Numbered from the stretch's first letter, positions 7,090 through 58,562 are shown. The stretch is 64,000 nucleotides of DNA from Candidatus Babelota bacterium (GCA_965658655.1 CBFHTA010000002.1:96001-160000), one strand, 5' to 3'. Notes: generated by a model not told the origin, from the letters alone. Numbers and translations: made by a program.

Positions 7090-7452
7090 ATGTATAAGTA
7101 CTTGTTTGTGTTGTTCTTAATTCCACTGAATATTCTTACGATGGATGATAGTACCCCTGAGTCGCAAAATGAGATCGAGCAGACTGTGCCTTTTCGTAAA
7201 AACAGCATTGCGATAAGGAAACGAAGAGAAGAAAAGGATGCAGAAGATAAAGAATTTCGAAAAAAATGTAATGCTTCAGGGCTAACATCTATGCTAACCT
7301 TAGAAGCTTTAAAAAAGCATGTGGGGCAAAGTCAGAATGATAATGACAACACATTTAACCCATCGATAAAAACTCCTCAAAAACGCGGTGTTTCTTGTGA
7401 AGAGGTTGAGCAAACCAAAAATAAATACCTTTTTTGCTGTGTATTGATTTAA
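7090..7452 (+). CDS. Secreted hypothetical protein with C-terminal CaaX box (candidate effector)
   Basis: Signal peptide MYKYLFVLFLIPLNILT followed by MDD; ends KNKYLFCCVLI-stop. Confidence 0.75.
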   Translation: MYKYLFVLFLIPLNILTMDDSTPESQNEIEQTVPFRKNSIAIRKRREEKDAEDKEFRKKCNASGLTSMLTLEALKKHVGQSQNDNDNTFNPSIKTPQKRGVSCEEVEQTKNKYLFCCVLI

Positions 7453-7550
7453 TTCTTAATTCTCATTAGTAAAAATCTGACAGGTATTGTTTTTTCTTGT
7501 AGTATTGCAATGATATTGATTTTGAAAACCTCTCTAAGAAAGGGCATACG

Positions 7551-8462
7551 TTGTTAGCAATACTTTTGTTGTACGCGTTGTTTGGTACTACGTTTATTTT
7601 GGGGAAAGAAGCTGTTTCGATTGTCCCCCCAATTTTCTTCATTGGTGTTAGGATGATGCTTGCAAGTATTATTCTTCTAGGGTTCATTAAACTCTGGCAA
7701 CGCGAATCTTTAGCTGTTAAACGTAAAGATGTTCCATGGTTTGTAGGAATTGTGCTCTTTCATATTTACATTGCCTATGTTTTTGAATTTGTAGGAATGC
7801 AGTACCTGACAGGAGGAAAAGCTTGTTTAATGTATAATCTGTCACCTTTTATTACTGCTTTATTTTCGTACATTTTCTTTAGTGAAGTTATGACACTCAG
7901 AAAATGGATAGGTTTAGCTATTGGATTTCTAGCTTTTATCCCAAGCTTAATTTTTCAGACTTCAGCGCAAGAAGCTAGTGCTGGTGGATTTGGATTTATC
8001 TCTTGGGGAGAACTGTTGTTGATCATCTCAGTAGTTTCTGCTTCTGCAGGTTGGATTTTTATGAGAAAGCTTACTCGTGAGCTTGGGTATTCATACTTCT
8101 TTGTGAATACAGTGGGAATGCTTGGAGGGGGTATTTTAGCGTTGGCAACCTCTTATCCGCTTGAAGTGTGGCCTTCTTGTAATAGTTTAATAACCAATTG
8201 GCCATTTTTGTATACACTTTTTGGTCTCATTTTGATTGGAAATATTATTTGCTTTAATTTATACGGTTATCTTTTGGCTAGTTATTCCGCAACCATATTA
8301 TCATTTTTTGGTTTTGTAACACCACTTTTTGCGGCCCTTTTTGGTTGGCTGTGGTTGGGAGAGACTGTTCATTGGACATTTTATGTGACGGTTGCATTGG
8401 TTACATTTGGTCTTTATGAATTTTATCAAGAAGAACTTAAGCAAGGGTATATTCTTAAATAA
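7551..8462 (+). CDS. EamA/DMT-family transporter (copy 4)
   Basis: SPFITALFSYIFFSE, PLFAALFGWLWLGE, FYQEEL; TTG start. Confidence 0.9.
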   Translation: MLAILLLYALFGTTFILGKEAVSIVPPIFFIGVRMMLASIILLGFIKLWQRESLAVKRKDVPWFVGIVLFHIYIAYVFEFVGMQYLTGGKACLMYNLSPFITALFSYIFFSEVMTLRKWIGLAIGFLAFIPSLIFQTSAQEASAGGFGFISWGELLLIISVVSASAGWIFMRKLTRELGYSYFFVNTVGMLGGGILALATSYPLEVWPSCNSLITNWPFLYTLFGLILIGNIICFNLYGYLLASYSATILSFFGFVTPLFAALFGWLWLGETVHWTFYVTVALVTFGLYEFYQEELKQGYILK

Positions 8463-8676
8463 GTTGTATACACTAAAAAATTACAAAGGGACCCTCTAAA
8501 GGCCCTTTTGTTTTGTGCAAATAAACTTGTTTCAATAAAAACGTTTTGCTTTAGGATTTACTTTTTCTAGATAAGGCTTACTGGGGTCTTGATGGAGTTT
8601 GCATTGAATGCGAACTTAAAATAAAGAAATTATTAGTAGCCTTACTGTTGGAACATAATGTTAGACAGATGAGTAA

Positions 8677-9042: not shown

Positions 9043-9127
9043 GTTTTTGTTTCTTTCTTTTTTACAAATAAGCCCAAACTACGTATAATGATAGCAAATT
9101 GTTTGGATTTACTCAAAGAGATGCATT

Positions 9128-10546: not shown

Positions 10547-10619
10547 TATAAATTATTCTTGAGAGTAGAAAGTTTCCATAATATACATGTATAGCACAAC
10601 AACGAGAGGAAGGTTTGCT

Positions 10620-11069
10620 ATGGTCAAAGTAGGTGAGCATATTACGTTAGATATTGTTGGGACAACAAAAGAATACGATATTGCTTTTTACGAAAGATTG
10701 GTTCATGAAATTGCTAAAGAAGCAAAGGTAGAAGTTCTAAAGATTTCTAGTCATAAGTTTGAACCTCAAGGATCAACAACTTTAGCTTTATTAGCTGAAA
10801 GCCATATTAGCTTTCATACGTTTCCAGAGCATGGAGTTATAAGTTTTGATTTTTTTACTTGTGGAAAAGTTCATCCACGCATTGCAGAAGATATTATTAA
10901 AAAAGAAATTGAACATACTCGGATTGTAAAAAAAGAATTTGATAGAGATACGCAAGGTGCCAGCTGGTATTACAATGTAAATCCTTCTGGGATAATGATA
11001 ATGATGGTAATGGCACTATTAACAAAAAAGCTTTTTGATACAGGATTACACAAAAGGATTTTTGGTTAA
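10620..11069 (+). CDS. speD: S-adenosylmethionine decarboxylase proenzyme with added hydrophobic C-tail
   Basis: FEPQG, LAESHISFHTFPE (E|S autocleavage site), DFFTCG; RBS GAGGAAGG before the ATG at 10620. Confidence 0.9.
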   Translation: MVKVGEHITLDIVGTTKEYDIAFYERLVHEIAKEAKVEVLKISSHKFEPQGSTTLALLAESHISFHTFPEHGVISFDFFTCGKVHPRIAEDIIKKEIEHTRIVKKEFDRDTQGASWYYNVNPSGIMIMMVMALLTKKLFDTGLHKRIFG

Positions 11070-11196
11070 ATTAGAATTTGGAATACCATTTTAGATGGGG
11101 TATATATCCCCAGTTGTGATTACCATTGAAATTTTGCTTCTGCTTAATATGAAACACTATAATTAATACTTTAAAATTAATCATAAGGACATCTAC

Positions 11197-11973
11197 ATGA
11201 AAAATAAATTATTACTCTCTTTATTGATGCCAATGTTACTTTGCAGCCAGAACTTGCATAAAACCTTCCTCTACCCCAGTTTGACTGGTTCTGAAGGTCT
11301 TGTTAAGCATTATGTTGTTGAAGAAGTTTTGAAAGATTTTACTTCAAAGATGGGCCAGCATGTTCAAATCTTTAAACTAAAGGAATTTGGAAAAGCTTTA
11401 TTCATAGATGGTGATATACAAGTTTCCACTAAAGATGAGTACCTTTATAGTTCTACTTTTGTACGTTCAAGTTTAAAACTAAGTGAAGTAAAAGATAAAG
11501 TTGCTATTATTGGTGGCGGAGATGGCGGAGTTGCGCGAGAATGTCTTGCACAAGGGTGTGGTTCTATAGATTGGTATGATTTAGATAAAGAAGTTGTTGA
11601 AGTATCGAGTAAGTATTTAAGCACGATTGGAAACAGCGTTCTTGAAAGCGACAAGGTAAAAGGTATTTGGGGAGATGCTTTTGAGAATATTAAAGCAGTT
11701 ACCGATAATACTTATGATAAAATATTTATAGATCTTACAGATGATCAGTTTTGTGTTGATTTAACAATAAAAAATATAGATGAATTAAAAAGAATTCTTA
11801 AACCAGATGGTGTGGTAACAGTTCAAGCAAGCAGTAAAGATACCAATCCTACACAAGTAGAAATGTGGACAAAGGCCTTTCATAAAGCATTTGGAAATAC
11901 AAGCTTAGATGAAGTGTATATCCCAAGTTTTGACTGTGCTTGGAATTTTTTATCTTCCACCTATACTCAATAA
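11197..11973 (+). CDS. speE: Spermidine synthase/aminopropyltransferase with N-terminal signal-like peptide
   Basis: FGKALFIDG.IQ, IIGGGDGGVARE, DKIFIDLTD, YIPSF; follows speD. Confidence 0.88.
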   Translation: MKNKLLLSLLMPMLLCSQNLHKTFLYPSLTGSEGLVKHYVVEEVLKDFTSKMGQHVQIFKLKEFGKALFIDGDIQVSTKDEYLYSSTFVRSSLKLSEVKDKVAIIGGGDGGVARECLAQGCGSIDWYDLDKEVVEVSSKYLSTIGNSVLESDKVKGIWGDAFENIKAVTDNTYDKIFIDLTDDQFCVDLTIKNIDELKRILKPDGVVTVQASSKDTNPTQVEMWTKAFHKAFGNTSLDEVYIPSFDCAWNFLSSTYTQ

Positions 11974-16114: not shown

Positions 16115-16120
16115 TAACTC

Positions 16121-36678: not shown

Positions 36679-39600
36679 TTATACAACCCTTGATTGAGTA
36701 AAGAATGTATTAATAAAAGTCAAAACTCTGTTTTTTAAATCCGATACCGCAAGATGCAAGGGTTGCTCGGGCATTTGAAACCAAGTAAATCGTGTGGAAC
36801 GTGAAGGTGGTTCTGGTGCTGGACGAGAAGCTCTTGGTGCAGGTTGCTGCTGTTGAAAATCTGTTTGCTCTTGACCTGTAGTCCTAACCGCTGTTGAACG
36901 AGAAGGTGGTGCTGGTGGTCCCTGGTAAGAAGTTCCTCTTGAACCTGAATCTTGTTGCGGAAGTTTTTGACCTCTTGAGACCATAGGTCGATTTTCTGAA
37001 CCCGAAGATTGCTGCGCTTCTCTATATTGTTGCCCTTCTGAAACTGGAGCTCTAGGCGGTGCTTTTGGAGGAGATTTTTTGCCAGCTATCGCACTTTGTA
37101 CTTCACTGTCTAAATTACCTTGAGAAATCAATTTAAGACTTCCCGGCTGGACCTGAGCATTTGAAAATTGTTGTCTAATTAAACTCAAACCTTGTCCTCC
37201 TACAGAGTATCCATTAGGATAAAGATAATCTGAATTACCTTTTTTCACCTCGTAGATAGCACCGTTAGAATAATCTACATAGGTACCAACCCCAAACGTA
37301 AGCACAGCATTATTGAACATTTCAATTGCACTCATAGTATTCCCTTTACCGGCGTTGTAACGTGTTTTATCATTTTGATAGTACTCTTCTATTGTTGCCA
37401 ATGGCGGAATACGATACATAACGGTTGGCGTTGGTTTACTAAATCCAACAAGATAACTGCCAATAGAGTTCTTTGGAACTTGTATAGTCATTTTGCTATT
37501 TCTATCAACTTCTTGCACAAGCTGTATGTTTCCTTCTGCATTTGAAATTACATTTACACCATCTTTATACTTTGCAAGATCCTTCTTAGATGCATACGAA
37601 TAACCAAATCCGTAAATTGCTTGGACTTGTTGATTCCCGAGAGCAACGTAAGAACTTTGAACCGCTACTCCAGAACGTGATTTTTGACCCGTTACAGAAT
37701 AGTCAGTAACTAAACCTGGAATACTTATTCCACCAGGCGCTTGATACTGTGCCATTTGCCCAGGACGTGGTAAACCGCCTTGATTTATAAAATAAAGTTT
37801 TGTGTTAGAAGAAGGAGAAACAGGATTTATAGTTGGAACAAACGCAAGCATCGACTCTTCTTTATTTTCAAGAATGCCACAAAGAGTAGATCCAAAAACT
37901 GGAGTACCTTGTGGGATACCTTTTATTCCTTCTCTATTACCCATACCCATACCAACAAATGGTCTTCCATATACTGTTGCTCGAGCAACCATATTATTTT
38001 GAGCCAGAGGGTATTTAAATCCTTGTATGCCACCTTCTATATAACGCTGACTACCAAATTGATACTGACGAGGCTTATCTCCAGCTGCAGATGTCAATGT
38101 AATTGCATCGTATGCCATACCACTTGCAGAAAGCTTATATTCAATCTCATAAAGTGCCCAACCACGTTGAGAAGCAGCCTCTACAGCAGAAACAAATGCA
38201 ACCTCTGCTTTTTGTTGCTCTGTCATACCTTGAGTATCAAACCCTTTTGGCAAATTGAGTTCTTGCATTTTGCCCTCTTGTGAACCTGGTGCAATTATTT
38301 TTTGCACAGGAATAATTTCTTGACTAGCACCCTCTCCTTTTGTTTCATACCCAATATACATTGTTTGTTTTTGAGCATTTTGAAATCGATATATACTGGT
38401 AAATGGTACATACATGTACTGCGTATAACCTTGCCCAGTATTAGCCAAAGCATTAAGATTTTGCCCTTGCCCAGAACTGTTATTTGCCTCACCCCATACA
38501 AAGATAGGCATTTCAACATCAACAACTTCTTGCTTATTTTCCCCTTGAACAATAGGGTACGCAACAACGGTAGGAATCATACGTGGCTGGCCGTTTACAT
38601 AATATTCATCACCACTCATAAGATCTACAAAGTAACCAATATTTGCAATATCTTTGCCATCTTCAGAACCACCACCATATAAGGTTCCTGTCATATCTTG
38701 TACTAATACATAGTATGCTTGAGTAAGACGATGATAATAGTAATAATACTTTTCACCTTTTTCGCGGTTAATAGCCGGAGCAACATTTTTGGCAAGCTTC
38801 ATATAATAACCATCTTGGCCAAAACCTGGAATCAAAGTTTTTTCTCCGGGAGCAAGTGGCAAAGGAACATTTGTTACCGGAATGGTAAGAGATTGTTCTC
38901 CGTTAGGCTCAACCACAACACCATGGGCCGCACGCATAGCTTCAAGCTCAAATCCTTTCATAGCAGATGTTGGCACAAGATTCTCTGCTTTAGGATTAGT
39001 TGGAACAGCGTAATAAACACCCACATTACTGTCGCCGGCTTCTGAGGTAGCGTTGAAATCAAAGAATGTATAAAGTGTTGGCATTCTTCCATTTTCATCT
39101 TTATCAGAGAGAACCGTTTTTGCTTTTAAGAAATACTTACCACCAACTTGTATAAGATTAGAACTTGGAACAGCCGGGTTATTAAGAGTTGGCTCTGTTA
39201 CTGTTCGTGCTTTTTCCATTACTGCTATTGGAATAATAGGAGCTGTATCTATAAGTGATCGTGGATCTTCAAGCGAAGATACCTCATTAATATATTGAGT
39301 ATTAAGCTCGATAATCCTTTGTGCAAGATCTACATTAATTTGTACTTTATTCTGCGTTTGCACAAGTTCCATTGCTCTTCTTGGTACACTTTGCTCTCTA
39401 CCTACACCAGTTTTTTCATACATTTTGCCTAAATAATTTTGCTTACTTTGACCATTTTCTAAATACAACGTACCGGTAACCAAACTCAACATAGCCTTTG
39501 TATATGGAGTTACGGCCTTACCACCAGTAGAAGCACTATTTGGCATATCGGTAACCACTAGATAGTCATGTGCCGAATCATACGATTGACCTTCTGGAGT

Positions 39601-42600
39601 AAGTGCATAAATATAGGTTCCTTTGTTGACAGACTCTAAACTTAAGCGAAGTTTGAGTCCGCCAAAGTAAACGGGGTATAATGTTTTTTGAATTTGTCGC
39701 TGGGCTGATTGCAATGCAGTATTCAACTCTCCTTGTAACCCAGAAGAAAGATTTGCGAATGCCGCATTTAGATTTTGAGTCGTAACTGTTTGGCCAATAT
39801 CTCCTTGATTAGTTAACGCTGCAGCAAGAATTTCTTGAGGACTCAATCTCAGTTGCGTTCCTGTTCGAACTGGAGGAGAAACTTTTCCTTTTGCAGGGTC
39901 AGAACCACCTGGCAATACACTTTGCCCAACAGGTTGTAAACTACACTCGTTTCCAGATAGCGATGCATTAGGAGAGAAACAAGCATAAGGAGCAACATCT
40001 TGCATATCCCCCATTCCTTTAGCACCTGGATAAATATACGGTGTATACACCTGACCAGTACCCACATTAATTAAATACTTACCTGCAACCACTTCAGTGT
40101 AAGGTCTTCCAATACTATGTAACTGATCTATAGATTTTACATTACCATCTTCTGGACCAAGTGCACATACAAAGATATCTGTTTGAGGAAAGCCCGAAGC
40201 ATGATAAAAGAAGTTACCATTTGCAACATCTTGCCTACTTGTTGCAGTAATATACACATTTCCATATTGACGTTGAGTGTAATTAAATGGCCCCATAAAT
40301 CCACTCTGAACCCAATAATTATTTCTATCTTCTGATAGCGACCATTCTGTATAAGCAGCAAGAATACTTGGGTAAAAAGTGCCTAGTTTTTTACCATATG
40401 TTGGACTACTGATACCTTTAAAGAAACGAGCCTGTTTAAGAGGTCCTGTGTCTGCAGTATTGCTCAAGTCTCGTGCAAGGTTAAATCCAGAGAATGCTTC
40501 TGGCAGCACACTCATTAACGAACCATTAACTTTGTCTTTACCATGCGAAATAACCAGTGTAGTTGCATTCTTACACGGTTGCGTCATTGGCCATTGAACG
40601 GTTTGACTCTGCACTGCTTTTGCACTTTGTTCAGCAGCACCACCCGATTGCTCTTCTTGCCCTGTTGGAGAGAAAGTAGAAGATTGCCCACCTCTAGAAC
40701 AGAAAGAGAATCCAGTAAAGAATAAGAAATAAAGTGGAGGAACATTAATCATTAATTGTTCGCTTTTCCACTCTGCTGCTCGTGGCGTTTTATTAATAAT
40801 ACTATTAATAGTATTATACCTCTCTTGAGCACTTGAGAGCATTTTTTCAAGTGGCTCTAGATTTTTTGCTCCCATAAGCGCAGATACTTGTTCTTCATTA
40901 AATCCAGCTTTCATCAAATAGCTACCAGCGCTTTCTGCTCCATATTTATCAATCACTCCAATCGCGTATTCTTTTGTACCAGCAGAGAGCCCTCCTAAAG
41001 AAGCAGAAAGTTTTGAAAATTTAACACCATAATTAAGAACGGCATCTTTTGCACTATTATACTCTTGCAACATTTGAGGATCGGTAATCATTCTATTTAC
41101 AGGATTGTAATAACCTGGCATAAAGGCAGTTCCCATATATACATTTGGAACTACCCTAATTGTTTCTAATGAGCGAGTGGGGCCATTCGGTCCCTTCTTT
41201 TCTACATAAATTTGATCTTGTTGTTCTCCCACCCATGAACCTGTTTGAAAACCATATTTACCTTGACCATTAAGAGAGAAGAAAGAACCTCGATTAAGTG
41301 GATGCATATTAACGGTATACCATAATGGTAAAGGTTCATAATCAGTGTCATAACCACGTCCTGTAATCAAACTAAACAAACCTTGCACACCATGGGTACC
41401 CAAGCTTCCTGTCATCTGATCAAGGCCAAGGGGAAGAATCTCGAACTTACCCGTAGATGCGCCACCAACAGGTACTACGTAATCGGGAACGCCATTCTTT
41501 CCTAATACACCGTCACCACTTTTTGTCACCTTATACACATAGAATCGAGATAGATACTCTTTCTTCTGTGCCTTATTCCAAGAAGTATATAAAGCATTTT
41601 GTTGAGCTGCGCTAGATGCTTGGCTAAGCACGTCTCCCATATCTTTAATACTGTTTTCTTGTTGCTCAAATGCGTCTCCATCTAACAGCTCTGTTAGAGG
41701 AACCCTGGTCAAAGTATAATTAGTATAGGTAGTAAATGGACCATCAACAGCTGCATCTGTACTATATTTTGCCATTGCTACAATCTGACTCATTGCTCTT
41801 TCTCCAATAGAACCTGCTCTCATAAGGAGCCTTTCTATTTGTTGCAACGCATAGGTGGCCATAGAATTATCTGGCACTCCATTACCGTCAAGATACGGAG
41901 TAAGTAATTTTGTATCACTTGCTACTTTCCCTTGTGCAGTAGTTGCCGGTCGAGTTCCTTGGTCATCTCCCTTTTGATAGGTAAGACCAGTTGTTAAACT
42001 AGAAATATAAACAATATCAGGATTTGGAACCATTTTGAGCGTATAACCTTTTACCGTTTCACTACCAGCAACAGCTTTACCTTTGCCTGTCTTTTGTTGC
42101 TTCTCTAAGTCACCCTTTACCACCCGTGGTACAAGAAGCGGAACAATACTTTTATTTGCCGACAAACAAACAACATACTCTTTAAGTGGCACATATGAAT
42201 TTGAATTGTTTCGTAATAAACCATGAAGTGAAGGTGTCACTGTAGTAGCAGTTTTTGCTTGTGTGTTATCTGAAACAATTTCATAAACATACAGGTTATA
42301 TGCATTAAGGTTTGCGTCAGGAGAAAAACCATATTCTGGTGTATCTACTTGCTGTTCTCCAAGTGCGTTGGCAACTGCACTTTGTGCTTGTCTAAGAGCG
42401 CTCTTTTCTTTTTCGCCATACGTAACCTTATTACCGTCAAACGAAATACTCGATTTATAACTTTGATCAATTTCAGCAAGACTTTTTAAAGCTTTTTTTA
42501 AATCTGAACTAAGCGGACGAAGAGAATTATTAAGAATAATATTTAAGAACCCCGTACCTTCCATTTGACGTAATTGCAAAGTACCAAAACCTTTTACGTC

Positions 42601-44472
42601 TGTAGGAGATCTAAATGCAGCAATGGTTTTATAAAACAATGGCGGTGGTAGATTTCCTCCCACAGTTCCTGGAAGCGTTGATTGTGTAGAAGCAGAACCA
42701 GTAGCTGCGTATTGACGCACCATAGGAGATAACAACATTGCTTTAATTATAGGATCGTTAAATGAATTTTTTGCTCCATGTGACATTAACGAAGAAGAAT
42801 CCATACGCAAATAATCAAGCGCATCAGAAGTATGCGTAAAAGTATTAGCGCTTGTTTTAGTTACAAACCCACTCGCAAATGGTTCAATAACACCAATCAT
42901 AGATTGGGTAGGCTGAAGATAGTTTGCAGCTTCGCCCGTACCTACAAATACATACCCATTATTTAAACAAACCATCTGACCGTTAAACTGAGATCCTCCA
43001 ATATAAGAAGTTCCCCAGAAACTTTGTTGTGGTGCACCGGTTACATAGAAGTTGGCAGTTCGTAAAAACTGAGAGTTAAAGTAACCAGAAGACTGCTTAG
43101 TACCATTTGGAACTTCACAATAAAGGTAAGCTGAATTTGCAGGATTCTGTTGATCAATTAATTGTGGGGGAATCTGCAACCACAAATTACCAAATGGCTG
43201 AGCGTCTCCAATAGTTTCGAGCAACGCCATTCTGTTCTCTTTTGCCACCGTCATTTGATACAAGGCACTCGGCACAGTAAATGCAAGAGCCTGACCAAGC
43301 AACATAACAAAACCAGAAACCAACATTCGCACAACGCTCAGGGCTCCTTTTCCTGCCCACTCAAGGTTTCTACCAATTCTTTTATCTATAGAATCAAGTT
43401 TTCGAATAGCTTTTTCGTTTTTCGCTTGTTCTTTCAACTTATCATTAAGTTCATCTTCTAATCCTGTAGTATCTTCACCATCGTTTCCTGCTCTGGCGAT
43501 GCGATCTCTTACATCTTGAACTTCATCTGCCAATCGTGGTCGCTCCACTTTTATCAACCGTTCTTGTTCTTCTATCGTTCTTTGAGACCTCAAAGATTTG
43601 TCAGACCAATCATGATAGTCATCCACCTTACCTCGAACATACCTTGTTGTACCACTCCAAGCATCATCAACTTTACCTTTAGCTCCTCTCCACGCCCTTT
43701 TTAAAAAGCCCGCATCATCGGCATCATTTTTTTCACCCCGAGTCATTGTGTCTCGTAAATCTTTCATATCTTTTCGGTTTTCATTCAAGCGATCTTCTGC
43801 ATCATCAAGATTTGCCTGAGCTTCCTTCACTTCTCTAGAGGTACTATTAGGGTTTTCTTTTACCTTTTCTAAATTTTGTTGAGCCTCATTAGCTTTTTGA
43901 TTCAAATCTGTGTTTTCTTTCTTTAATCTCTTATACTGGTCTGCCTTACTTGTGCTTCCCTCAGACCCTTTGATAGCACCATCAGTATCGTTATGCATAT
44001 CTAATCGAGCTGAATTATCGCCTGAAAGGGGATCTCCACTCTCGGGATCAACTCCGTCAGGACCCTGTTGAACATTTATGTTATCCATCGCTTGGTTGAT
44101 TTTACCAACATCATAGTTATCGTTATCAGCCTTCATAACAGCTCTGGCATTAGCAACGTCTTGATCTGTAATACTTGCTTTTGCTTCGTTAATAGCCTTT
44201 ACTTGGCTAGAGTCAAGGTCTTCTAGCTTTAAGGTTTTCCCCGTTATTCTCTCGTATTTTGCTACAGCTTCTATTTGGTCTTCAGAAAGATTTCCAAGGT
44301 CGTCACCTTGAAGGTCTCCATCTTTAACCGACAAACCGTCTCCAAGGTCTGCATCATCATCCGCCATAGCATCTGCCGCAGCGTCCATAGAAAAAACAGG
44401 AGAAAAAGAGATAAATGGGAGTGCCGTAATTAACAATGTTAAGAGTGTGAGATTTTTAAATTTAATTTTCAT
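36679..44472 (-). CDS. 2597-aa secreted protein: acidic N-terminus, coiled coil, hydrophobic segment, cryptic repeats, Pro-rich tail
   Basis: Uninterrupted 7.8-kb ORF; signal peptide ending VFS-MD; upstream TTGATT-18-TAAGCT promoter-like element; own terminator. Confidence 0.9.
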   Translation of the reverse strand: MKIKFKNLTLLTLLITALPFISFSPVFSMDAAADAMADDDADLGDGLSVKDGDLQGDDLGNLSEDQIEAVAKYERITGKTLKLEDLDSSQVKAINEAKASITDQDVANARAVMKADNDNYDVGKINQAMDNINVQQGPDGVDPESGDPLSGDNSARLDMHNDTDGAIKGSEGSTSKADQYKRLKKENTDLNQKANEAQQNLEKVKENPNSTSREVKEAQANLDDAEDRLNENRKDMKDLRDTMTRGEKNDADDAGFLKRAWRGAKGKVDDAWSGTTRYVRGKVDDYHDWSDKSLRSQRTIEEQERLIKVERPRLADEVQDVRDRIARAGNDGEDTTGLEDELNDKLKEQAKNEKAIRKLDSIDKRIGRNLEWAGKGALSVVRMLVSGFVMLLGQALAFTVPSALYQMTVAKENRMALLETIGDAQPFGNLWLQIPPQLIDQQNPANSAYLYCEVPNGTKQSSGYFNSQFLRTANFYVTGAPQQSFWGTSYIGGSQFNGQMVCLNNGYVFVGTGEAANYLQPTQSMIGVIEPFASGFVTKTSANTFTHTSDALDYLRMDSSSLMSHGAKNSFNDPIIKAMLLSPMVRQYAATGSASTQSTLPGTVGGNLPPPLFYKTIAAFRSPTDVKGFGTLQLRQMEGTGFLNIILNNSLRPLSSDLKKALKSLAEIDQSYKSSISFDGNKVTYGEKEKSALRQAQSAVANALGEQQVDTPEYGFSPDANLNAYNLYVYEIVSDNTQAKTATTVTPSLHGLLRNNSNSYVPLKEYVVCLSANKSIVPLLVPRVVKGDLEKQQKTGKGKAVAGSETVKGYTLKMVPNPDIVYISSLTTGLTYQKGDDQGTRPATTAQGKVASDTKLLTPYLDGNGVPDNSMATYALQQIERLLMRAGSIGERAMSQIVAMAKYSTDAAVDGPFTTYTNYTLTRVPLTELLDGDAFEQQENSIKDMGDVLSQASSAAQQNALYTSWNKAQKKEYLSRFYVYKVTKSGDGVLGKNGVPDYVVPVGGASTGKFEILPLGLDQMTGSLGTHGVQGLFSLITGRGYDTDYEPLPLWYTVNMHPLNRGSFFSLNGQGKYGFQTGSWVGEQQDQIYVEKKGPNGPTRSLETIRVVPNVYMGTAFMPGYYNPVNRMITDPQMLQEYNSAKDAVLNYGVKFSKLSASLGGLSAGTKEYAIGVIDKYGAESAGSYLMKAGFNEEQVSALMGAKNLEPLEKMLSSAQERYNTINSIINKTPRAAEWKSEQLMINVPPLYFLFFTGFSFCSRGGQSSTFSPTGQEEQSGGAAEQSAKAVQSQTVQWPMTQPCKNATTLVISHGKDKVNGSLMSVLPEAFSGFNLARDLSNTADTGPLKQARFFKGISSPTYGKKLGTFYPSILAAYTEWSLSEDRNNYWVQSGFMGPFNYTQRQYGNVYITATSRQDVANGNFFYHASGFPQTDIFVCALGPEDGNVKSIDQLHSIGRPYTEVVAGKYLINVGTGQVYTPYIYPGAKGMGDMQDVAPYACFSPNASLSGNECSLQPVGQSVLPGGSDPAKGKVSPPVRTGTQLRLSPQEILAAALTNQGDIGQTVTTQNLNAAFANLSSGLQGELNTALQSAQRQIQKTLYPVYFGGLKLRLSLESVNKGTYIYALTPEGQSYDSAHDYLVVTDMPNSASTGGKAVTPYTKAMLSLVTGTLYLENGQSKQNYLGKMYEKTGVGREQSVPRRAMELVQTQNKVQINVDLAQRIIELNTQYINEVSSLEDPRSLIDTAPIIPIAVMEKARTVTEPTLNNPAVPSSNLIQVGGKYFLKAKTVLSDKDENGRMPTLYTFFDFNATSEAGDSNVGVYYAVPTNPKAENLVPTSAMKGFELEAMRAAHGVVVEPNGEQSLTIPVTNVPLPLAPGEKTLIPGFGQDGYYMKLAKNVAPAINREKGEKYYYYYHRLTQAYYVLVQDMTGTLYGGGSEDGKDIANIGYFVDLMSGDEYYVNGQPRMIPTVVAYPIVQGENKQEVVDVEMPIFVWGEANNSSGQGQNLNALANTGQGYTQYMYVPFTSIYRFQNAQKQTMYIGYETKGEGASQEIIPVQKIIAPGSQEGKMQELNLPKGFDTQGMTEQQKAEVAFVSAVEAASQRGWALYEIEYKLSASGMAYDAITLTSAAGDKPRQYQFGSQRYIEGGIQGFKYPLAQNNMVARATVYGRPFVGMGMGNREGIKGIPQGTPVFGSTLCGILENKEESMLAFVPTINPVSPSSNTKLYFINQGGLPRPGQMAQYQAPGGISIPGLVTDYSVTGQKSRSGVAVQSSYVALGNQQVQAIYGFGYSYASKKDLAKYKDGVNVISNAEGNIQLVQEVDRNSKMTIQVPKNSIGSYLVGFSKPTPTVMYRIPPLATIEEYYQNDKTRYNAGKGNTMSAIEMFNNAVLTFGVGTYVDYSNGAIYEVKKGNSDYLYPNGYSVGGQGLSLIRQQFSNAQVQPGSLKLISQGNLDSEVQSAIAGKKSPPKAPPRAPVSEGQQYREAQQSSGSENRPMVSRGQKLPQQDSGSRGTSYQGPPAPPSRSTAVRTTGQEQTDFQQQQPAPRASRPAPEPPSRSTRFTWFQMPEQPLHLAVSDLKNRVLTFINTFFTQSRVV

Positions 44473-46240: not shown

Positions 46241-48790
46241 ATGAGCCAGTCCTCATACTCAAGCTCTTCAATGAGCATTCTCCTAACTCTTTTACTCTCT
46301 GCTCAGGCACCCGCTTTTGCAGAAGTAAAAACTACTCCTAAAAAGGTAGTTACTATTTCACGCGAACAACTACAAGACCTGTCAGTCCGCGCACTCAAAC
46401 AGATTGATATTTGTGAATCCATCATAGATACATTTGGTCAATTCCTAGCAAACATTAAAGGAAAGTTGTCTGACGAAAAGAAAACAGAAATTTCTTATAA
46501 CTTACAAAATCTTCGTAAGCAGATGGGAATCATTAAAGATGCCTATGCTATTCACATTGATGCAAATCAACTTATTGGCCTTGTTAACTTAACAGGGGAA
46601 GTTGCGCGCGTATTGACTGCTGGTGTTAACTCTGGATTAGAAGTGATTCCAGAATTTAACGAAAAAGTTCTTGCAACTAAAGCAGCAGACAACACTTCTC
46701 TACAAGAAATTGAGAAACTATTGCTCGCCAACGATAAACGTTTACAAAAACTGGGTGACCTTTCTGAAAAAGTTGGTTTAACAAACCTAAACAGAATGTA
46801 TCGAACTGCACGTAAGGTTTACAAAAAGTACTACGTATGGCCGATCATCGAAAGAACAATTGTGTACACAGCATTTGTTCACTGGGCAGTCTTTGTTACT
46901 TCAGAATGGAAACTTGAACAACTAGAAAAAACTGGTGGAATACTTAGCCCAGTTGGCACCATTGTAAAAAACATTAAGAAATGGATTGGTTCACCAATAC
47001 ACCCAATCAAAAAAAATGTTCAATTAGACGGACATCTTGTAGTCAGAGATCATGAGACAGGCAAGATGCGCTTTGCCAGACAAAATGATCTTCCTCTTTA
47101 TGAATTAAACTTCACTAAAGAAGGCGAAGTCAAAACACCAAAACAATATATTGGCACTGAAAACATCGAAGGTACTCCTGAGATCAAAGTGCCTGTTGAA
47201 AACGAAGTTCCAGGAACCTCTTCACCTAAAGGGAAACTAAATAATGCAACAGACTGGACTTCTGGTTTCGGGAATCTTGACTTCAAAAAACAAATGTTCA
47301 CATGGGCTCCAGGTCTCTTTTTTGCAAATTACCTATCAGAAGATTACAAAGTAATTTCTACAAAATGCAGCAAACTTACAAGCAGAGTTGACGACTTCCT
47401 TTATGGCACTACAAAGAAACGTAGTTACGAAACTTTGACTATGCCAGATGAGCGTTTCGATAACATTGTAGGTAGAGACGAAGTAAAAGCTGAATTAAAG
47501 AAAGTAGTTGAATACATCTGTTCACCAGATAAATTCGACCGTGCTGGTATTAAAGTTGAAAAAGGTTACTTGCTTGCTGGTGATCCACAAACAGGTAAAA
47601 CCTACATGGCAAAAGCACTAACCGGTGAAATTAACGATGCACTCAAAAAAATGGGTAGAAACGATAAAATGCGCTTGTTCGAAATCAGCACAGACGCACT
47701 TATCTCTAAAGGTATTGCACACTACATGAACCTTGCTCGTTACCACGCGCCTTGCATCTTGTTCTTAGACGAACTCGACCTTTTAAGATTGCAACGTGAT
47801 GGTGACTCTAAACTGTTGAGTGAATTCTTAACAAGCATGAGTGGCACCTTAAGCAAAGACGAAAAGTCTCACGTTATTATTCTTGCTGCAACCAACAAAC
47901 CAGAGAACTTAGATTTTGCACTTCGCCAACATGGACGCTTTGGTAAAATGTTCTGGTTCGACAAACCAACATTTAACCATCGTATTGAATTCTTCCAAAA
48001 AGAATGTGTTAAACGTTGCATGAACATTGAGCGTTTTAACTTCAATGAGCTAGCAAAACAAACTGAAGGTTGTTCTTTTGGTTCGCTCGACATTGTTATG
48101 AAGAAAGCGTTAATGCTTGCAAAACTCAGCGGTAGTTCAGTAACTCAAGAACACTTCGACAAAGCACTCGATAGTGAAATCAAACAAATGATTCCACACG
48201 GGTACAATGTTCCTAAAGAAAAAGAAGAAGTTATTGCAGTACACCATGCTGGTAAAGCAATTATGAGCGCGGTTCTTGAGCCTCAAAAGAAACTCAGCAA
48301 AGTAACCGTGTTACCAATCACGCAAGATTTACAAGAAGAACACGTTACTCAGCAATACAACATTGCAGGGCTTCAAAGTAAAGACCAACGCGCAATTCGC
48401 CACGGCGGGATATTCTCTTACAATTGGTCAGACTCGCTCAATTTGGTTTCTCAAGATGAGTTAAAGAAACAATGTAAGATTTTGCTTGCAGGTAACATTG
48501 CACAAACAGTTTACGGCTTATCAAGCCCTTCATACGACAAACAAGACAAACAAGAAGCGTTTAAACTTGCAAAACAAATTGTGCTTGAAGGTTTAGATCA
48601 AAAAGAAATTGCAAAAGCAATTCGTGAAGAAAAACTAACCGAAGCATATCGCTTGGTTGAACAATACGAATATGAAATTGCACAACAACTTGAAGAGCAC
48701 AAAGGATGGCTTGTTGCAACAACTCAAGCACTCCAAGAACGCAAAACGCTTTCTGTTGGAGAACTTGAAGAGCTACACAGTAAGATTTAA
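46241..48790 (+). CDS. FtsH-like AAA+ ATPase with degenerate M41 protease domain
   Basis: Walker A GDPQTGKT, Walker B ILFLDELD, SRH AATNKPENLDFAL..HGRF; HEXXH position reads HHAGK. Confidence 0.88.
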   Translation: MSQSSYSSSSMSILLTLLLSAQAPAFAEVKTTPKKVVTISREQLQDLSVRALKQIDICESIIDTFGQFLANIKGKLSDEKKTEISYNLQNLRKQMGIIKDAYAIHIDANQLIGLVNLTGEVARVLTAGVNSGLEVIPEFNEKVLATKAADNTSLQEIEKLLLANDKRLQKLGDLSEKVGLTNLNRMYRTARKVYKKYYVWPIIERTIVYTAFVHWAVFVTSEWKLEQLEKTGGILSPVGTIVKNIKKWIGSPIHPIKKNVQLDGHLVVRDHETGKMRFARQNDLPLYELNFTKEGEVKTPKQYIGTENIEGTPEIKVPVENEVPGTSSPKGKLNNATDWTSGFGNLDFKKQMFTWAPGLFFANYLSEDYKVISTKCSKLTSRVDDFLYGTTKKRSYETLTMPDERFDNIVGRDEVKAELKKVVEYICSPDKFDRAGIKVEKGYLLAGDPQTGKTYMAKALTGEINDALKKMGRNDKMRLFEISTDALISKGIAHYMNLARYHAPCILFLDELDLLRLQRDGDSKLLSEFLTSMSGTLSKDEKSHVIILAATNKPENLDFALRQHGRFGKMFWFDKPTFNHRIEFFQKECVKRCMNIERFNFNELAKQTEGCSFGSLDIVMKKALMLAKLSGSSVTQEHFDKALDSEIKQMIPHGYNVPKEKEEVIAVHHAGKAIMSAVLEPQKKLSKVTVLPITQDLQEEHVTQQYNIAGLQSKDQRAIRHGGIFSYNWSDSLNLVSQDELKKQCKILLAGNIAQTVYGLSSPSYDKQDKQEAFKLAKQIVLEGLDQKEIAKAIREEKLTEAYRLVEQYEYEIAQQLEEHKGWLVATTQALQERKTLSVGELEELHSKI

Positions 48791-54644: not shown

Positions 54645-54689
54645 TTAAAATTAAGGTAAGTCAGTAAAATTACTCAATAGATCGTGCTC

Positions 54690-55874
54690 CTAATAATACC
54701 TTGGAGCCGTTTGTTCGAAGTTCCGCTGACGAATTATTTCTCTTTGCCCTTCTTTTTTGGTTTCAATTTCCTTTAATGTTTCATTTATACTATCAATACG
54801 TTCACTAAGAAACCTTTTCATACTCTTTCCATCTCTTCGATCTCTGATTGATTCTCTTCCACTAATTGATTCAGTTTGCAATTGCCCCCATTGTCTTTCT
54901 AACCGAGATCTTAAAGCCTGAAGTTCTTCAGGACTCTTGCTGCTTTCTGCCTTTGTCATTTCTCCATTTGTTTGTCTCATAAATTCATCTATTGCATTAT
55001 CACGGCTTGCTTTAAGTTCATTTTTATAGGTTTGATCATCATCAATTTGACCATCCTGCCAGCTTTTGTTTCTTTCTACCATACGATCAAACAAACGATC
55101 TTGGTCTGTTTTTAAGCTTGGTCTTTGAAGTTTTTCTAATTTTGTACCTATCTCATCAATACGTTGCTTAACGAAGTCCTCCATACTTTCTTCACCGTTT
55201 TCATCTGTTCCACCTGTGATTGGTTCTTTTTCCAAACTCTCCAGCTGTCTTTCTAACCGAGACCTTAAAGCCTGAAGTTCTTCAGGACTCTTTCTGATTT
55301 CTGCCATTGTCATTTCTCCATTTGTTTGTGTCATAAATTCATCTATGGCATTATCACGGCTTGCTTTAAGCTCATTTTTATAGGTTTGATCATCATCATT
55401 TTGACCATCCTGCCAGCTTTTGTTTCTTTCTACCATACGATCAAACAAACGATCTTGGTCTGTTTTTAACCTTTGGGTTGAAGTGCGCTTGTCAGAATTT
55501 GTAAAATCTAACCCACGAGAATCTGAAACTTCAGCAACCTTTTTAACTATTGAAGCACTATCTGTTCCGTCGGCATTTACGCTTGAAGCATCAACGCTTC
55601 CTTCCATGGAAACAGGACTTTCTGCACCGCTCCCTCTACCAAACCACGATTTAATTCTATCGAAAAAACCGCGTTTTCGGGGTCTTTCTAATGTAGTGGT
55701 ATCCCTATCGTCACCTCTTTCGGTATCATGGTCACCATCTTGACCATCTGAATGATCTTGCTGATTCCCATTGTCACCAGTATTGTGTTCTTCAATCACT
55801 TCGCCATCCATAGCGGACAAAGAAAGGGGGATTGCAACTGCTAAAAGCAATAATGCCAATATATTTTTCTTCAT
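54690..55874 (-). CDS. Secreted family member 3 with internal 118-aa duplication
   Basis: Signal peptide ending LSA-MDG; N-terminus nearly identical to 55885..57381. Confidence 0.85.
   Translation of the reverse strand: MKKNILALLLLAVAIPLSLSAMDGEVIEEHNTGDNGNQQDHSDGQDGDHDTERGDDRDTTTLERPRKRGFFDRIKSWFGRGSGAESPVSMEGSVDASSVNADGTDSASIVKKVAEVSDSRGLDFTNSDKRTSTQRLKTDQDRLFDRMVERNKSWQDGQNDDDQTYKNELKASRDNAIDEFMTQTNGEMTMAEIRKSPEELQALRSRLERQLESLEKEPITGGTDENGEESMEDFVKQRIDEIGTKLEKLQRPSLKTDQDRLFDRMVERNKSWQDGQIDDDQTYKNELKASRDNAIDEFMRQTNGEMTKAESSKSPEELQALRSRLERQWGQLQTESISGRESIRDRRDGKSMKRFLSERIDSINETLKEIETKKEGQREIIRQRNFEQTAPRYY
54892..55469. repeat. Intragenic direct repeat: two near-identical 224-bp copies, 354-bp period
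   Basis: 54892-55115 and 55246-55469 both encode LKTDQDRLFDRMVERNKSWQDGQ...ELQALRSRLERQ. Confidence 0.95.
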
Positions 55875-55884
55875 AACCTCTCCT

Positions 55885-57381
55885 CTATTTAAACCAACCT
55901 CTAGCTCTTCCTCTTTCTGCTACTTTACTCACGGCTTCAGGATTATCACGTCTCCATTGTTCAAGCTGTTCCGAATCCCTACGCGCTTCTCGTTGTTCAT
56001 CCGTAAGCGACCGACTCCTTCTTGATGGATCTGTTGTATTATCTGTTCCCAAATTATATCTTTCCCTCAACGCATTATTTCTCAATTTTTGGTAAGTTTG
56101 CATATGTTGTTGCTCTCGTTGCATTTTTTGTTCTCGAGTTAACCTTTCAGCTTTTCTTCTATAACCCACTTCTCTATCTAATGATTTCACTTTAGTATCA
56201 AGGTAATTATCACCAGTATGCTGAGTATAATCCTTAGTAGCAAAGTCCTCGGCGCCAAATCCATCGTTCCTTATCATCGCTAGGTTAGCGCTCTTTTTTA
56301 GATCTGCTTCTCTATTTCTTTGATATTCAAGATGCTCTAAAAGAGCAGTTTTTTGTTCAGGAGTTTCAGCATCACGTATAAGTGTGTCTACCTGTTTTTT
56401 ATATTCTATTTTTGCATTACCAAGTTGTTTTCGTATATCCACTCTATTGTCGCCTTCAAACTTGTTATACAAGTTTGAAATTTTATTGAATATTTTTCTT
56501 TCCTCTTTAAATTTATCGTCATAGGAATGAACGTCTTTCTCTTGCTGTTCAACATAACGAGCTCGATCAGCATTATCTTCGAACGTTGCTGACTTCTTCA
56601 ACATTCGCTCTGCTTGCCTTCTTGTAAGATGATCCCCACCCTGTTCACCCTTTGCAATACTCTTGAGCTGAGCTTCTCTTGCACCTTGAGACTTTAATCT
56701 ATCAAGTTTAAATTCTTCTGCAGTATGTGGTGTTACCCCATCTGCATTATTTTCTATGTTTTCTGTTCCACCAGTACCTTCACCTCGCATTCCCTTTAAT
56801 ATTTCTCTGGCACGTGCATGTTCTCCAGATCTTGAACCATCTGCTAATATTTCCCTTGCTTCATCACGCAAGTTATCATTTGATTCTTTAAAATCTTCTT
56901 CAAATGTGTTCCTCACATTGTCCATATCTTTTTCATATCCATCGTACTCAATACTAGAATCGTTTTTTGCATTGTGCCATGCGTTTCGAGCTTTTTCTCT
57001 TTTTTCAAGATGAAAATCTAACCCACGCAAAGTTGAAACTTCAGCAACGTTTTCAGCTATTGAAGCACTTTCTCCTGTGTTGGCAACAGCACTTGAAGCA
57101 TCAACCGAACCTTGCATCTCAACAGGTGTTTTTGAACTGCTCCCTCCGCTAAACAATGAACGGATTCTATCAATAAAACCTCTTCTTTGAGGCTTTATTG
57201 AGGTATTGTTATCAACTACATCTCGCTCGTTGTCACCATTTTGACCATCTCGACCATCTAAATTATCTTGCCGATTCCCATTGTCACCAGTATTGTGTTC
57301 TTCAATCACGCCATCCATAGAAGACAGAGAAAGAGGAATTGCAACTGCTAAAAGCAGTAATGCCAATATACTTTTCTTCAT
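55885..57381 (-). CDS. Secreted family member 2, charged helical C-terminal region
   Basis: Signal peptide ending LSS-MDG; shared N-domain up to RGLDF; ends RGRARGWFK. Confidence 0.85.
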   Translation of the reverse strand: MKKSILALLLLAVAIPLSLSSMDGVIEEHNTGDNGNRQDNLDGRDGQNGDNERDVVDNNTSIKPQRRGFIDRIRSLFSGGSSSKTPVEMQGSVDASSAVANTGESASIAENVAEVSTLRGLDFHLEKREKARNAWHNAKNDSSIEYDGYEKDMDNVRNTFEEDFKESNDNLRDEAREILADGSRSGEHARAREILKGMRGEGTGGTENIENNADGVTPHTAEEFKLDRLKSQGAREAQLKSIAKGEQGGDHLTRRQAERMLKKSATFEDNADRARYVEQQEKDVHSYDDKFKEERKIFNKISNLYNKFEGDNRVDIRKQLGNAKIEYKKQVDTLIRDAETPEQKTALLEHLEYQRNREADLKKSANLAMIRNDGFGAEDFATKDYTQHTGDNYLDTKVKSLDREVGYRRKAERLTREQKMQREQQHMQTYQKLRNNALRERYNLGTDNTTDPSRRSRSLTDEQREARRDSEQLEQWRRDNPEAVSKVAERGRARGWFK

Positions 57382-57422
57382 CCTATGCCCTCCATCTTAT
57401 TCGCTTCTTTTGTTCATTACAT

Positions 57423-58562
57423 TTAAAATTTCCACCATTTTCTTTTCTTGTACGTTTCCGCTAAATCGTTCATATTATCATCAAATTCCTGTGCACTGTT
57501 TTGCATTCTCTCTGAAGTTTCTGCCCCCTGTTGTACTCGCTCTGTTCTTTTAGCCATACCTGCATCAAGAGCTGTACCTTGCCCTTGTTGCATCCGGGCA
57601 GCACGTCTTGCTTTTGCTGTATCAAGCGCTGCTCTCATTTCAGGAGTATAACGACCTCTTATTGGCTGACTTTCCAAATTATAACGGTTAATTCTGCCTT
57701 CATTATTCCCTATGTTTTGACCCCTTTGGTTAAGGTCTGAACCTGAAAATCCTTCACTGTTTCTGGATATTCTCGGGTTAAATTGATCTGCTTCATCTTG
57801 GATATCTTTAGCACTTTTCGCTTTTTCGGTTGGTTCCTCTGTTCTTCCAAATAAGAACCAACTTCTTTTTTTTCTCTCTCTAATTTGACTAGTACGCTTT
57901 CTTAACTCATTATTAACTCTATCTATATTTTTTAAATAAAGATCCATTTCAGATGATCTAGATGTACCACCTTCATATCCTTTATTAAAGTCATCTTCCA
58001 GAGCTTTTCTTTTATCGTTCAAAGCGTTCATTTCATCAAACGCTGAATCACTTCTTCCACCCCACCAAGATCTCTTATACTTACCTTTAAAACTAACTGC
58101 ACCATTTTCGTCGATATTTGCAGTAAGATTTAATCCACGATTTGCAGTTCTAGCTATATTTGCTTCTGACTGTTCTGCTGAGGGTGCATTGGATTGATTA
58201 ACGGTTGAATCCATATCTTGGCCAACAATCTCTGCAGGAACATTTTGTGAACCTCTTTCAGGCACATTACTACTTCGGCTAAACCATCCACTTTTTTTTT
58301 CTGTTCGCCTTGTGCTTGTTTCAGTAAAACGACTCATACCATCTGCTAGATTATTTGCCTTTTCCATCAAGCCGTCTGAACTTGGCTGGCTCTCTTGAAA
58401 TCGTTCGATTCGATTTCTAAAGTCGTCTACAGGCGGTGCTTCATTATCACCACTCATACCTAAACCCATACTATCCGGCTCAGTAGGCGGTTCAAAACCA
58501 TCCATTGCGCATAGTGAATTTGCTGAAATAAACAATAGTAAAAATAAGCTTATTTTTTTCAT
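57423..58562 (-). CDS. Secreted family member 1 with C-terminal tomosyn-like R-SNARE motif
   Basis: Signal peptide ending LCA-MDG; C-terminus KRTERV...SERMQNSAQEFDDNMNDLAETYKKRKWWKF. Confidence 0.8.
   Translation of the reverse strand: MKKISLFLLLFISANSLCAMDGFEPPTEPDSMGLGMSGDNEAPPVDDFRNRIERFQESQPSSDGLMEKANNLADGMSRFTETSTRRTEKKSGWFSRSSNVPERGSQNVPAEIVGQDMDSTVNQSNAPSAEQSEANIARTANRGLNLTANIDENGAVSFKGKYKRSWWGGRSDSAFDEMNALNDKRKALEDDFNKGYEGGTSRSSEMDLYLKNIDRVNNELRKRTSQIRERKKRSWFLFGRTEEPTEKAKSAKDIQDEADQFNPRISRNSEGFSGSDLNQRGQNIGNNEGRINRYNLESQPIRGRYTPEMRAALDTAKARRAARMQQGQGTALDAGMAKRTERVQQGAETSERMQNSAQEFDDNMNDLAETYKKRKWWKF

Follow-up and report, generated by a model that had tools for sequence, protein, structure and literature searches.

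What does a methionine mean when it stands exactly where a signal peptide ends? The question is raised by a stretch of 64,000 nucleotides (hereafter the window; positions C2:96001-160000 of a Candidatus Babelota genome, G000), which encodes five open reading frames (ORFs) in which a Sec-type signal peptide is followed directly by Met-Asp. Signal peptides that end immediately before a methionine (here termed Met-first junctions) recur across the order Babeliales; this order-wide pattern is real, and its closest known parallel is the Q-rule of the Bacteroidetes. As to its origin, we favour, with somewhat less than even confidence, a reading in which the methionine would be the retained initiator codon of proteins that gained their signal peptide secondarily. 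G000 is a metagenome-assembled genome (MAG) of the Babeliales (Dependentiae), with a size of 928,713 bp in 4 contigs, 37% G+C and an estimated completeness of ~95%. Pfam annotation of 50 window ORFs reveals ordinary housekeeping genes mixed with orphans.

Met-first junctions in the window and in related genomes

The five ORFs had been singled out in a preliminary description of the window, and translation together with a codon check (ATG-GAY) confirms that each has a Sec-type signal peptide ending right before Met-Asp. The first encodes a 120-residue orphan on the + strand (7090..7452; signal peptide residues 1-17), with the junction MYKYLFVLFLIPLNILT/MDD, the slash marking the predicted cut, and the codons ATG GAT at 7141-7146. 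The other four are on the - strand and comprise a giant secreted protein of 2597 residues (36679..44472; ISFSPVFS/MDA; signal peptide 1-28; Met-Asp at 44383-44388), a 394-residue protein (54690..55874; IPLSLSA/MDG; signal peptide 1-21; Met-Asp at 55806-55811), its 498-residue paralog (55885..57381; IPLSLSS/MDG; signal peptide 1-21; Met-Asp at 57313-57318) and a SNARE-like protein of 379 residues (57423..58562; SANSLCA/MDG; signal peptide 1-19; Met-Asp at 58500-58505). In all five, the n-region includes K, the hydrophobic core is free of charges, and positions -3 and -1, immediately ahead of the methionine, hold small or aliphatic residues; on direct reading these are the features (n-region, core, -3/-1) of a Sec/signal peptidase I signal peptide. 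The five proteins are Sec substrates, in which signal peptidase I most likely cuts right before the methionine, leaving a mature Met-Asp end. The exported proteins with which they had been contrasted indeed have no methionine at +1, as is the case for the subtilase (CDA/F), the C39 peptidase (LQA/K) and the ORFs at 19078 (TVA/F), 26097 (SSA/L) and 59185 (LTA/F).

Genes in G000 were called with a crude caller (codon-usage score, longest ORF), yielding 857 genes that cover 91% of the genome; 315 of these are signal-peptide-like according to a simple n-region/h-region heuristic. Cleavage sites are, in all genomes, predictions from the -3/-1 rule and this heuristic. An iterative weight-matrix cleavage predictor was discarded because its sites moved into the hydrophobic core, with Leu at -3 and Ser at -1. 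The comparison included two whole genomes, G001 from the same genus and G004 from another genus of the same family, and a 400-kb sample of G253, from a different family of the Babeliales, with 95 signal-peptide-like proteins. The enrichment test counts methionines directly before the first charged residue past the hydrophobic core, and paralogs were collapsed by single-linkage clustering before significance was tested. The rule applied across genomes accepts a methionine with a small -1 residue, a suitable -3 residue and an uncharged hydrophobic stretch upstream.

Among the 315 signal-peptide-like proteins of G000, 13 have a Met-Asp junction, compared with 1.6 expected, and five have Met-Glu. 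The residue after the methionine is Asp or Glu in 18 cases and Lys or Arg in one, whereas the first charged residue of all signal-peptide-like proteins is acidic in 156 and basic in 159. The first 50 residues are strongly acidic in 14 of the 18 Met[Asp/Glu] proteins, as opposed to 18 of 296 others (one short protein dropped). After paralog collapse, 11 clusters (weighted 10.55) out of 261 remain against 2.9 expected (p=8e-4). The genome-wide enrichment for which the preliminary description suggested a test is thereby upheld as an excess over background, but it becomes modest, ~8 against 2.9 expected (p about 0.01), once lineages that share an N-terminal module are merged as well.

The related genomes span a wide range. 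In G001, five Met-Asp and four Met-Glu junctions are observed among 245 signal-peptide-like proteins (1.3 and 1.45 expected), forming 8 clusters against 2.2 expected (p=0.02), mostly of orphans other than those of G000. G004 has no Met-Asp or Met-Glu among 208 such proteins, with ~2.1 expected, and the G253 sample has Met-Asp in 7, Met-Glu in 18, Met-Lys in 3 and Met-Arg in 2, with ~0.5 of each expected. A rule-conforming methionine at a possible +1 position is present in 37 of the 95 proteins of G253 (39%, 20x the methionine background), in 30/315 of G000 (10%, 4.9x), in 18/245 of G001 (7%, 3.7x) and in 4/208 of G004 (2%, 1.0x). Other residues at +1 in G253 amount to 0.6-3x background, and the residue that follows the 37 methionines is Glu in 15, Asp in 5 and Gln in 3. 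The G000 pattern is a weak, low-penetrance local form of a junction that recurs across Babeliales; at about 6-10% of the signal-peptide proteins, the mark is too weak in this genome for use alone.

Within the window the five proteins do not represent separate cases; at most three are independent, since the tandem trio at 54690-58562 (- strand) has a common N-terminal module, to which the giant protein is connected indirectly. The 394- and 498-residue proteins are 64% identical across their first 124 residues, and hhalign aligns the family of the 379-residue protein to this pair over the first ~125 columns with 91.5% probability (E 8.5e-7). The shared module consists of the signal peptide, Met-Asp, an acidic stretch, a basic-aromatic patch (GWF/RGFF) and an RGL motif. 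A hidden Markov model (HMM) of the module matches three further G000 proteins, of 656 residues (C2:174163-176133, E 1.8e-8), 899 residues (C2:70830-73529, E 3.2e-5; junction MQA/PDA, without methionine) and 1088 residues (C2:163906-167172, E 1.8e-4), and a second round adds a 476-residue G000 protein and one protein of G001. The HMM did not recover the giant protein itself, whose link to the module runs only via the 1088-residue protein (39% identity over 62 N-terminal residues, pairwise E 4e-6). Because the trio shares the module and the leader of the giant protein resembles that of a module member, the Met-Asp pattern inside the window mostly reflects identity by descent. The resulting superfamily, with members at window 54690-58562 and at C2:70830-73529, 78198-79628, 163906-167172 and 174163-176133, is defined solely by its first ~130 residues, the C-terminal bodies being unrelated. 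The 498-residue protein has no homolog besides its 394-residue neighbour among 5.8 billion proteins. Thirteen of the 18 Met[Asp/Glu] proteins are encoded on contig C2, which carries 82 of the 315 signal-peptide-like proteins.

This common descent, together with the modest merged excess and the lack of Met-Asp and Met-Glu junctions in G004, agrees with the idea that the cluster in the window is one gene family plus coincidence. Also in line with it, lineage specificity is no higher among the Met[Asp/Glu] proteins than among the other signal-peptide proteins, a G004 homolog being present for 7/18 and 92/297, respectively. Nevertheless, paralogy and chance are an unlikely explanation. Within G000 the junction is also found in unrelated families (zinc-finger, ankyrin, a 196-residue family and the 120-residue orphan), its sister species G001 shows an excess of its own, zinc-finger proteins are Met-first in 8 of 12 other genomes, and in G253 the junction reaches 39% of the signal-peptide proteins.

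Protein classes that carry the junction

In G253, a Pfam scan covered 30 Met-Asp/Glu/Lys/Arg proteins and 58 of the 65 others, with seven ORFs of <130 residues left out. Ten of the 12 eukaryote-like proteins (ankyrin, WD40, PLA2_B, CwfJ, PAF-AH) are Met-first, compared with none of the nine envelope and membrane housekeeping proteins (DegP, M48, MreC, FKBP, S49, FtsW, TrkH, YdjM, FtsH-like), a significant difference between the two classes (Fisher p=2e-4). Cytoplasmic-type enzymes are Met-first in 2/5 cases, two of the three Met-less ones looking like false signal-peptide calls, and other proteins in 1/7. It is in G253 that the Met-first junction is best supported as a mark of proteins that are exported secondarily and probably directed at the host. 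Dependentiae are widespread protist parasites in which a third to half of the proteins carry a signal peptide, and a sequence mark that separates protein classes in this manner (10/12 against 0/9) would give a first handle on the host-directed repertoire of genomes available from metagenomes only. Four large signal-peptide proteins of G253 (503-893 residues) end in a Peptidase_S74 (endosialidase chaperone) domain, known as an intramolecular chaperone of phage tail fibres; none of them is Met-first.

G000 contains six tandem C2H2 zinc-finger paralogs outside the window (C2:157-3897 and C1:520256-520966). Each of them joins a Sec signal peptide ending LNG/M[D/E] and an acidic stretch to a KKRKR patch and an array of 3-7 fingers of eukaryotic type (zf-C2H2 Pfam E 1e-20 to 1e-39), such that 6/6 signal-peptide-bearing C2H2 proteins of this genome are Met-first. 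Matches to the N-terminal 98 residues are limited to their own paralogs. From these sequence features, the six are candidate host-nucleus-directed proteins. Of 261 Babeliales genomes, 81 encode C2H2 fingers; within the own family the figure is 13 of 15 genomes. A survey of 20 loci from 19 other genomes yielded 32 ORFs with at least two fingers, 26 of them signal-peptide-like; in 18 of these 26, distributed over 8 of the 12 genomes having such ORFs, a methionine is positioned right after the -3/-1 site. The ankyrin-like proteins of G000, G001 and G004 show a weaker link, with 2 of 31 being Met-first. The co-occurrence with eukaryote-like domains anticipated in the preliminary description is therefore seen in G253 and in the zinc-finger proteins, but not in the ankyrin-like proteins of the own family, 29/31 of which lack the methionine.

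A large share of signal-peptide proteins has also been reported for another member of the phylum, Chromulinavorax destructans, in which 44% of the coding sequences have a signal peptide, with enrichment in ORFans, as do 78% of the ankyrin proteins (PMC6561590). In this respect it resembles G000 with its 315/857; a methionine at the cleavage junction is not mentioned in the consulted passages of that article.

The association with protein class could also reflect a functional rule, according to which Babeliales favour methionine at P1' in one defined group of substrates of signal peptidase I and the resulting Met-acid end is put to use, the proposed uses being protection of the N-terminus, its modification, or the sorting of host-directed cargo off envelope residents. 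We consider such a rule doubtful, but several observations accord with it: the penetrance far over background and the strict class split in G253, the stereotyped c-region ahead of the methionine in the same genome, the retention of methionine in paralogs and families with otherwise diverged signal peptides, and the preference for Asp/Glu over Lys/Arg after the methionine in G000. In the same vein, a single signal peptidase may serve two secretome grammars, with Ala-type cuts for envelope proteins and a Met-acid functional code for host-directed ones; this proposal is doubtful as well. If it were true, sequence data would suffice to identify, by the +1 residue, which proteins of this uncultured phylum are effectors.

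A precedent for a lineage-specific +1 rule is provided by the Bacteroidetes, where the substrates of signal peptidase I carry a Gln at +1 that is cyclised to pyroglutamate (PMC5837995, PMC10653852). As far as the consulted parts of these two articles describe it, the Q-rule is similar in that one residue is favoured at +1 in one lineage within the ordinary Sec/signal peptidase I pathway. It differs in its reach, since the majority of substrates in the phylum follow it, envelope proteins among them, and in that the modifying enzyme is known, whereas methionine is found in 2-39% of the signal-peptide proteins, depending on the genome, and in 0/9 envelope housekeeping proteins. No description of the Met-first junction was found by open-access word searches, which cannot prove absence.

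Origin of the junction methionine

If the methionine is a retained initiator, a signal peptide would have been added upstream of a complete ORF, with the old initiator methionine staying at the junction. The carriers of the junction are mainly of kinds whose relatives are usually made without a signal peptide, namely repeat and zinc-finger proteins resembling those of eukaryotes, enzymes of cytoplasmic type, and orphans that evolve fast; classical envelope proteins are not among them. An Asp, Glu or Gln after the methionine may be a residue unfit for the c-region and thereby keep the cut pinned before the methionine; Lys and Arg near the cleavage site are disfavoured by Sec export. A comparable arrangement is known from organelle transit peptides, where a targeting peptide lies upstream of a complete ORF and the mature protein starts at the old methionine. 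The likeness resides in the retained initiator at the junction and the difference in the eukaryotic import system; an open-access word search found no bacterial Sec counterpart on such a scale. If this origin is correct, the methionine records the conversion of cytoplasmic or host-derived genes into exported ones.

The retained-initiator reading is preferred because of the class association and the module homology described above, and because of the position of the methionine in an FAD oxidoreductase, the starts of homologs without a signal peptide, the linker-bearing forms, the lability of the methionine between orthologs, the absence of a ribosome-binding motif at the junction ATG and the presence of a single signal peptidase I. 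In the FAD oxidoreductase of G253 the junction methionine lies 8 residues before the match to Pfam Pyr_redox_2/NAD_binding_9 (profile position 1-2), which is where the native N-terminus would be. For the 379-residue protein, 7 homologs were found among 1.84 billion representatives. Three of the seven, encoded on contigs of 2.1-14.1 kb, have an annotated start precisely at Met-Asp and no signal peptide, and one of these reads MDGFE, like the mature end in G000; one other has a signal peptide followed by Met-Asp-Ser, and two have a signal peptide, nine residues and then Val-Asp. In two families the Met/Val-acid dipeptide is separated from the signal peptide by a linker of 8-9 residues. In a 640-residue protein (C3:4311), Met-Glu-Asp-Gly lies past an 8-residue linker, while its G001 ortholog reads MYA/MEEG, directly after the signal peptide.

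The methionine itself is readily exchanged. The junction of the giant protein reads VFS/MDA in G000, LYA/MGL in G001 and LYS/AAV in G004, and the zinc-finger signal peptides of G000 and G001 are homologous, with Met and Ala at +1, respectively. The HD-domain protein has Met in G000 and Leu in G001, and no methionine is aligned in the other 28 loci; the 196-residue family keeps Met-Asp-Gln in G001, and in G004 it reads TS/NES, with Asn. These replacements by Leu, Gly, Ala or Asn argue against the functional rule, as do the linkers, which shift the Met-acid dipeptide to a position 8-9 residues into the mature chain, the Met-less ankyrin-like proteins and the low or nil penetrance in the own family (10% in G000, 7% in G001, 2% in G004).

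A functional rule is further disfavoured by the finding of just one gene for signal peptidase I per genome checked (G000, G001, G004, G053, G225 and G253), which in G000 is a Peptidase_S26 gene at C1:435995-436711 (E 2.3e-32). Nor did a candidate reader of the new N-terminus emerge, or an enzyme to modify it, for which no search was made. With one gene in each of these six genomes, a second, dedicated signal peptidase was rejected. Two other processing pathways were rejected as well: prepilin-type cleavage, because the hydrophobic segment precedes the cut rather than following it, and a lipoprotein signal, because no lipobox lies ahead of the methionine, with the G082 homolog of the 379-residue protein, which has a lipoprotein-type signal, as the only exception.

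A strictly kept ATG usually signals a start codon, and the three homologs of the 379-residue protein annotated as starting at the junction methionine would fit a second functional start from which a cytoplasmic isoform is made beside the exported one. The translation signals speak against such dual initiation, which is very unlikely. A Shine-Dalgarno (SD)-like motif precedes 56% of the called starts in G000 and 8% of internal ATGs; in the Met-first genes it is present at 15/19 signal-peptide starts and at 1/19 junction ATGs. In G253 the corresponding numbers are 24/37 and 0/37, with 7% for internal ATGs. Since the SD motif accompanies the start of the signal peptide and not the junction ATG, the long, signal-peptide-bearing form is the one that is translated. 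Moreover, alternative start codons are not in excess where Val or Leu occupies the junction (GTG in 2/13 Val codons against 14% genome-wide, TTG in 1/9 Leu codons against 16%), and the codons found at this position in the G007 relatives, CTT and TTT, do not serve as starts. An in-frame ATG right after a signal peptide can mislead gene finders into omitting the signal peptide.

Such an error may also underlie the three homologs of the 379-residue protein without a signal peptide, the starts of which are taken as annotated; the DNA encoding them was not found in searches of metagenome and viral contigs. This is one of several points that weigh against a retained initiator. In places the methionine looks too well retained for a neutral relic: it persists in 14 of 15 members aligned for the 196-residue family, in 18/26 signal-peptide zinc-finger ORFs from several families of Babeliales, and in 6/7 ankyrin proteins of G253, although their signal peptides have otherwise diverged. 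The c-region of the Met-first proteins in G253 has a habit of its own (-1 Gly in 16/37, -3 Leu in 12/37), which could mean recognition. The signal peptide of the HD-domain protein is old (34/261 genomes, every homolog read with an export-type leader) and the methionine occurs only in G000; simple substitution is thus able to produce the methionine. When ortholog pairs were scanned for the gain of a signal peptide that leaves a methionine, the outcome was nothing but false 5' extensions by the longest-ORF caller and one unrelated case, and cleavage before the methionine is a prediction at every site.

The preliminary description had interpreted Met-Asp as a tag for sorting to an outer translocon, or as a disguise in which the Met-Asp/Glu end imitates a host N-terminus and stabilises the protein in the host cytosol (NatB acetylation and the N-end rule). 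Neither is supported in view of the exchanges between orthologs, the linker forms and the ankyrin-like proteins without methionine. Met-Asp, Met-Glu and Met-Gln are NatB substrate types, and both the predicted mature ends of the five ORFs, which fit Met-Asp/Glu/Asn/Gln, and the second position in G253, dominated by Glu, Asp and Gln, would suit the disguise. So would carriers appropriate to a eukaryotic cell, which include KKRKR zinc-finger, ankyrin, WD40 and SNARE-like proteins. However, NatB works cotranslationally, on chains still attached to the ribosome, and would not encounter an imported protein. Ala, Ser, Thr or Gly at +1 would stabilise just as well but show no enrichment, and relatives have the destabilising Leu or Phe at +1 (the zinc-finger proteins of G007 and the HD-domain protein of G001). 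An open-access word search combining NatB with bacterial effectors gave nothing relevant among the papers listed. The disguise is the least probable of the explanations considered for the junction.

Eukaryote-like motifs, export machinery and neighbouring genes

Three of the five proteins had been described as carrying motifs of the eukaryotic cytosol, namely CaaX, PxxPxR and an R-SNARE motif. The first two are not significant; the R-SNARE likeness persists at a weak, family level. The 120-residue orphan ends CCVLI, with the CaaX-like CVLI at 7438-7449, but only 3/857 G000 proteins have CaaX-like ends, compared with 0.9 expected. Two more small signal-peptide proteins (G000 C1:154431-154934 and G001 17203-17610) end in the CaaX-like CVIL and CVIS, respectively, too few for enrichment. 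PxxPxR is present in the giant protein at 37051-37068, 36898-36915 and 36799-36816, in a proline-rich tail, and at 41173-41190; at least one copy is present in 16 G000 proteins. The giant protein has an acidic variable region up to about residue 370, a hydrophobic segment from residue 376 and a conserved body thereafter, and a search of a genome-contig collection gave no relatives.

SNARE mimics occur in Legionella and Chlamydia. In the 379-residue protein, Met-Asp is followed by the acidic stretch and the RGL motif, and a C-terminal helix region (57426-57572) leads to the end KKRKWWKF. Arg339, the sole invariant column in the alignment of the 8 family sequences, lies within a predicted helix (residues 331-377) with a pLDDT of about 65-74, the heptad register being judged by eye; the AlphaFold2 model as a whole (8 sequences, mean pLDDT 59.3) is too weak for a fold search. 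The family profile matches nine sequences in the PDB, six of which are VAMP4, VAMP8/endobrevin or VAMP2 (best E 0.03), some aligning with a segment near the N-terminus and one with that at the C-terminus. Six of the 8 family members match PF00957 (Synaptobrevin) at E up to 1, with a best E of 8.5e-5; the 379-residue protein itself scores 12.8 bits (E 0.11) against a cut-off of 26.4, and all family scores are below the curated threshold. The C-terminal 99 residues alone retrieved only designed coiled coils and RNase Z from the PDB with phmmer, and Pfam at E up to 0.01 gave nothing for this piece. The family resembles R-SNAREs in the VAMP matches and in its invariant Arg, a possible counterpart of their central (zero-layer) arginine, but differs in its sub-threshold scores, its Sec signal peptide and the lack of a hydrophobic segment or membrane anchor at the C-terminus. 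On these sequence resemblances, the protein may work as a SNARE mimic, with family membership below threshold. Two SNARE-like helices can be distinguished in the family, the N-terminal one aligning to VAMP8 and the C-terminal one to VAMP4. Its distribution is patchy: the profile finds it in 2/261 Babeliales genomes, including G000, and in 7 metagenomic representatives, and a search of 40 relatives gave no match outside G000.

For onward secretion, proteins delivered to the periplasm by Sec could then exit by a secretin pathway or in vesicles. G000 contains two secretin genes ~2 kb apart (C1:179310-181946 and C1:183975-186716) and one GspE/PilB-type ATPase gene (C1:276661-277809), which are the only outer-membrane export candidates found. 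In this ~95% complete genome no match to VirB4 or FHIPEP was obtained, and no search was made for type VI or type I components. Substrates of the Legionella type II system reach the host cytosol (PMC5478897), and a Sec signal peptide followed by a secretin route, as outlined in the consulted part of that article, is the point of likeness with G000, where the two secretin genes and the ATPase gene would be the counterparts of such a route. The two-step export suggested in the preliminary description is plausible in the light of the Sec signal peptides, signal peptidase I, the secretins and the ATPase, but nothing indicates that Met-Asp serves as a sorting tag within it.

The remaining observations concern neighbouring genes. 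The 120-residue Met-Asp orphan is inserted between the third and fourth of four tandem EamA-type transporter paralogs on the + strand (window 4076-8462; 4076-4996, 5251-6168, 6172-7071 and 7551-8462). The 394-residue protein has an internal duplication of ~115 residues and matches Pfam UPF0158 above the cut-off (33.7 bits, E 4.5e-8). In G001, a contig of 34,499 bp encodes an isoleucyl-tRNA synthetase 84% identical to that of G000; its public record is titled Alteromonas MAG and is probably mislabelled. At window 10587-11973 (+ strand) an AdoMet decarboxylase is followed by a spermidine synthase with a signal-peptide-like N-terminus (MKNKLLLSLLMPMLLCS), a normally cytoplasmic enzyme that here bears an export-type leader. 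A thioredoxin reductase-thioredoxin fusion with an N-terminal hydrophobic anchor is encoded at window 44552-46039 (- strand), and beside it, at window 46241-48790 (+ strand), lies the gene of an FtsH-like AAA/M41 protein whose signal peptide looks cleavable (APAFA/EV).

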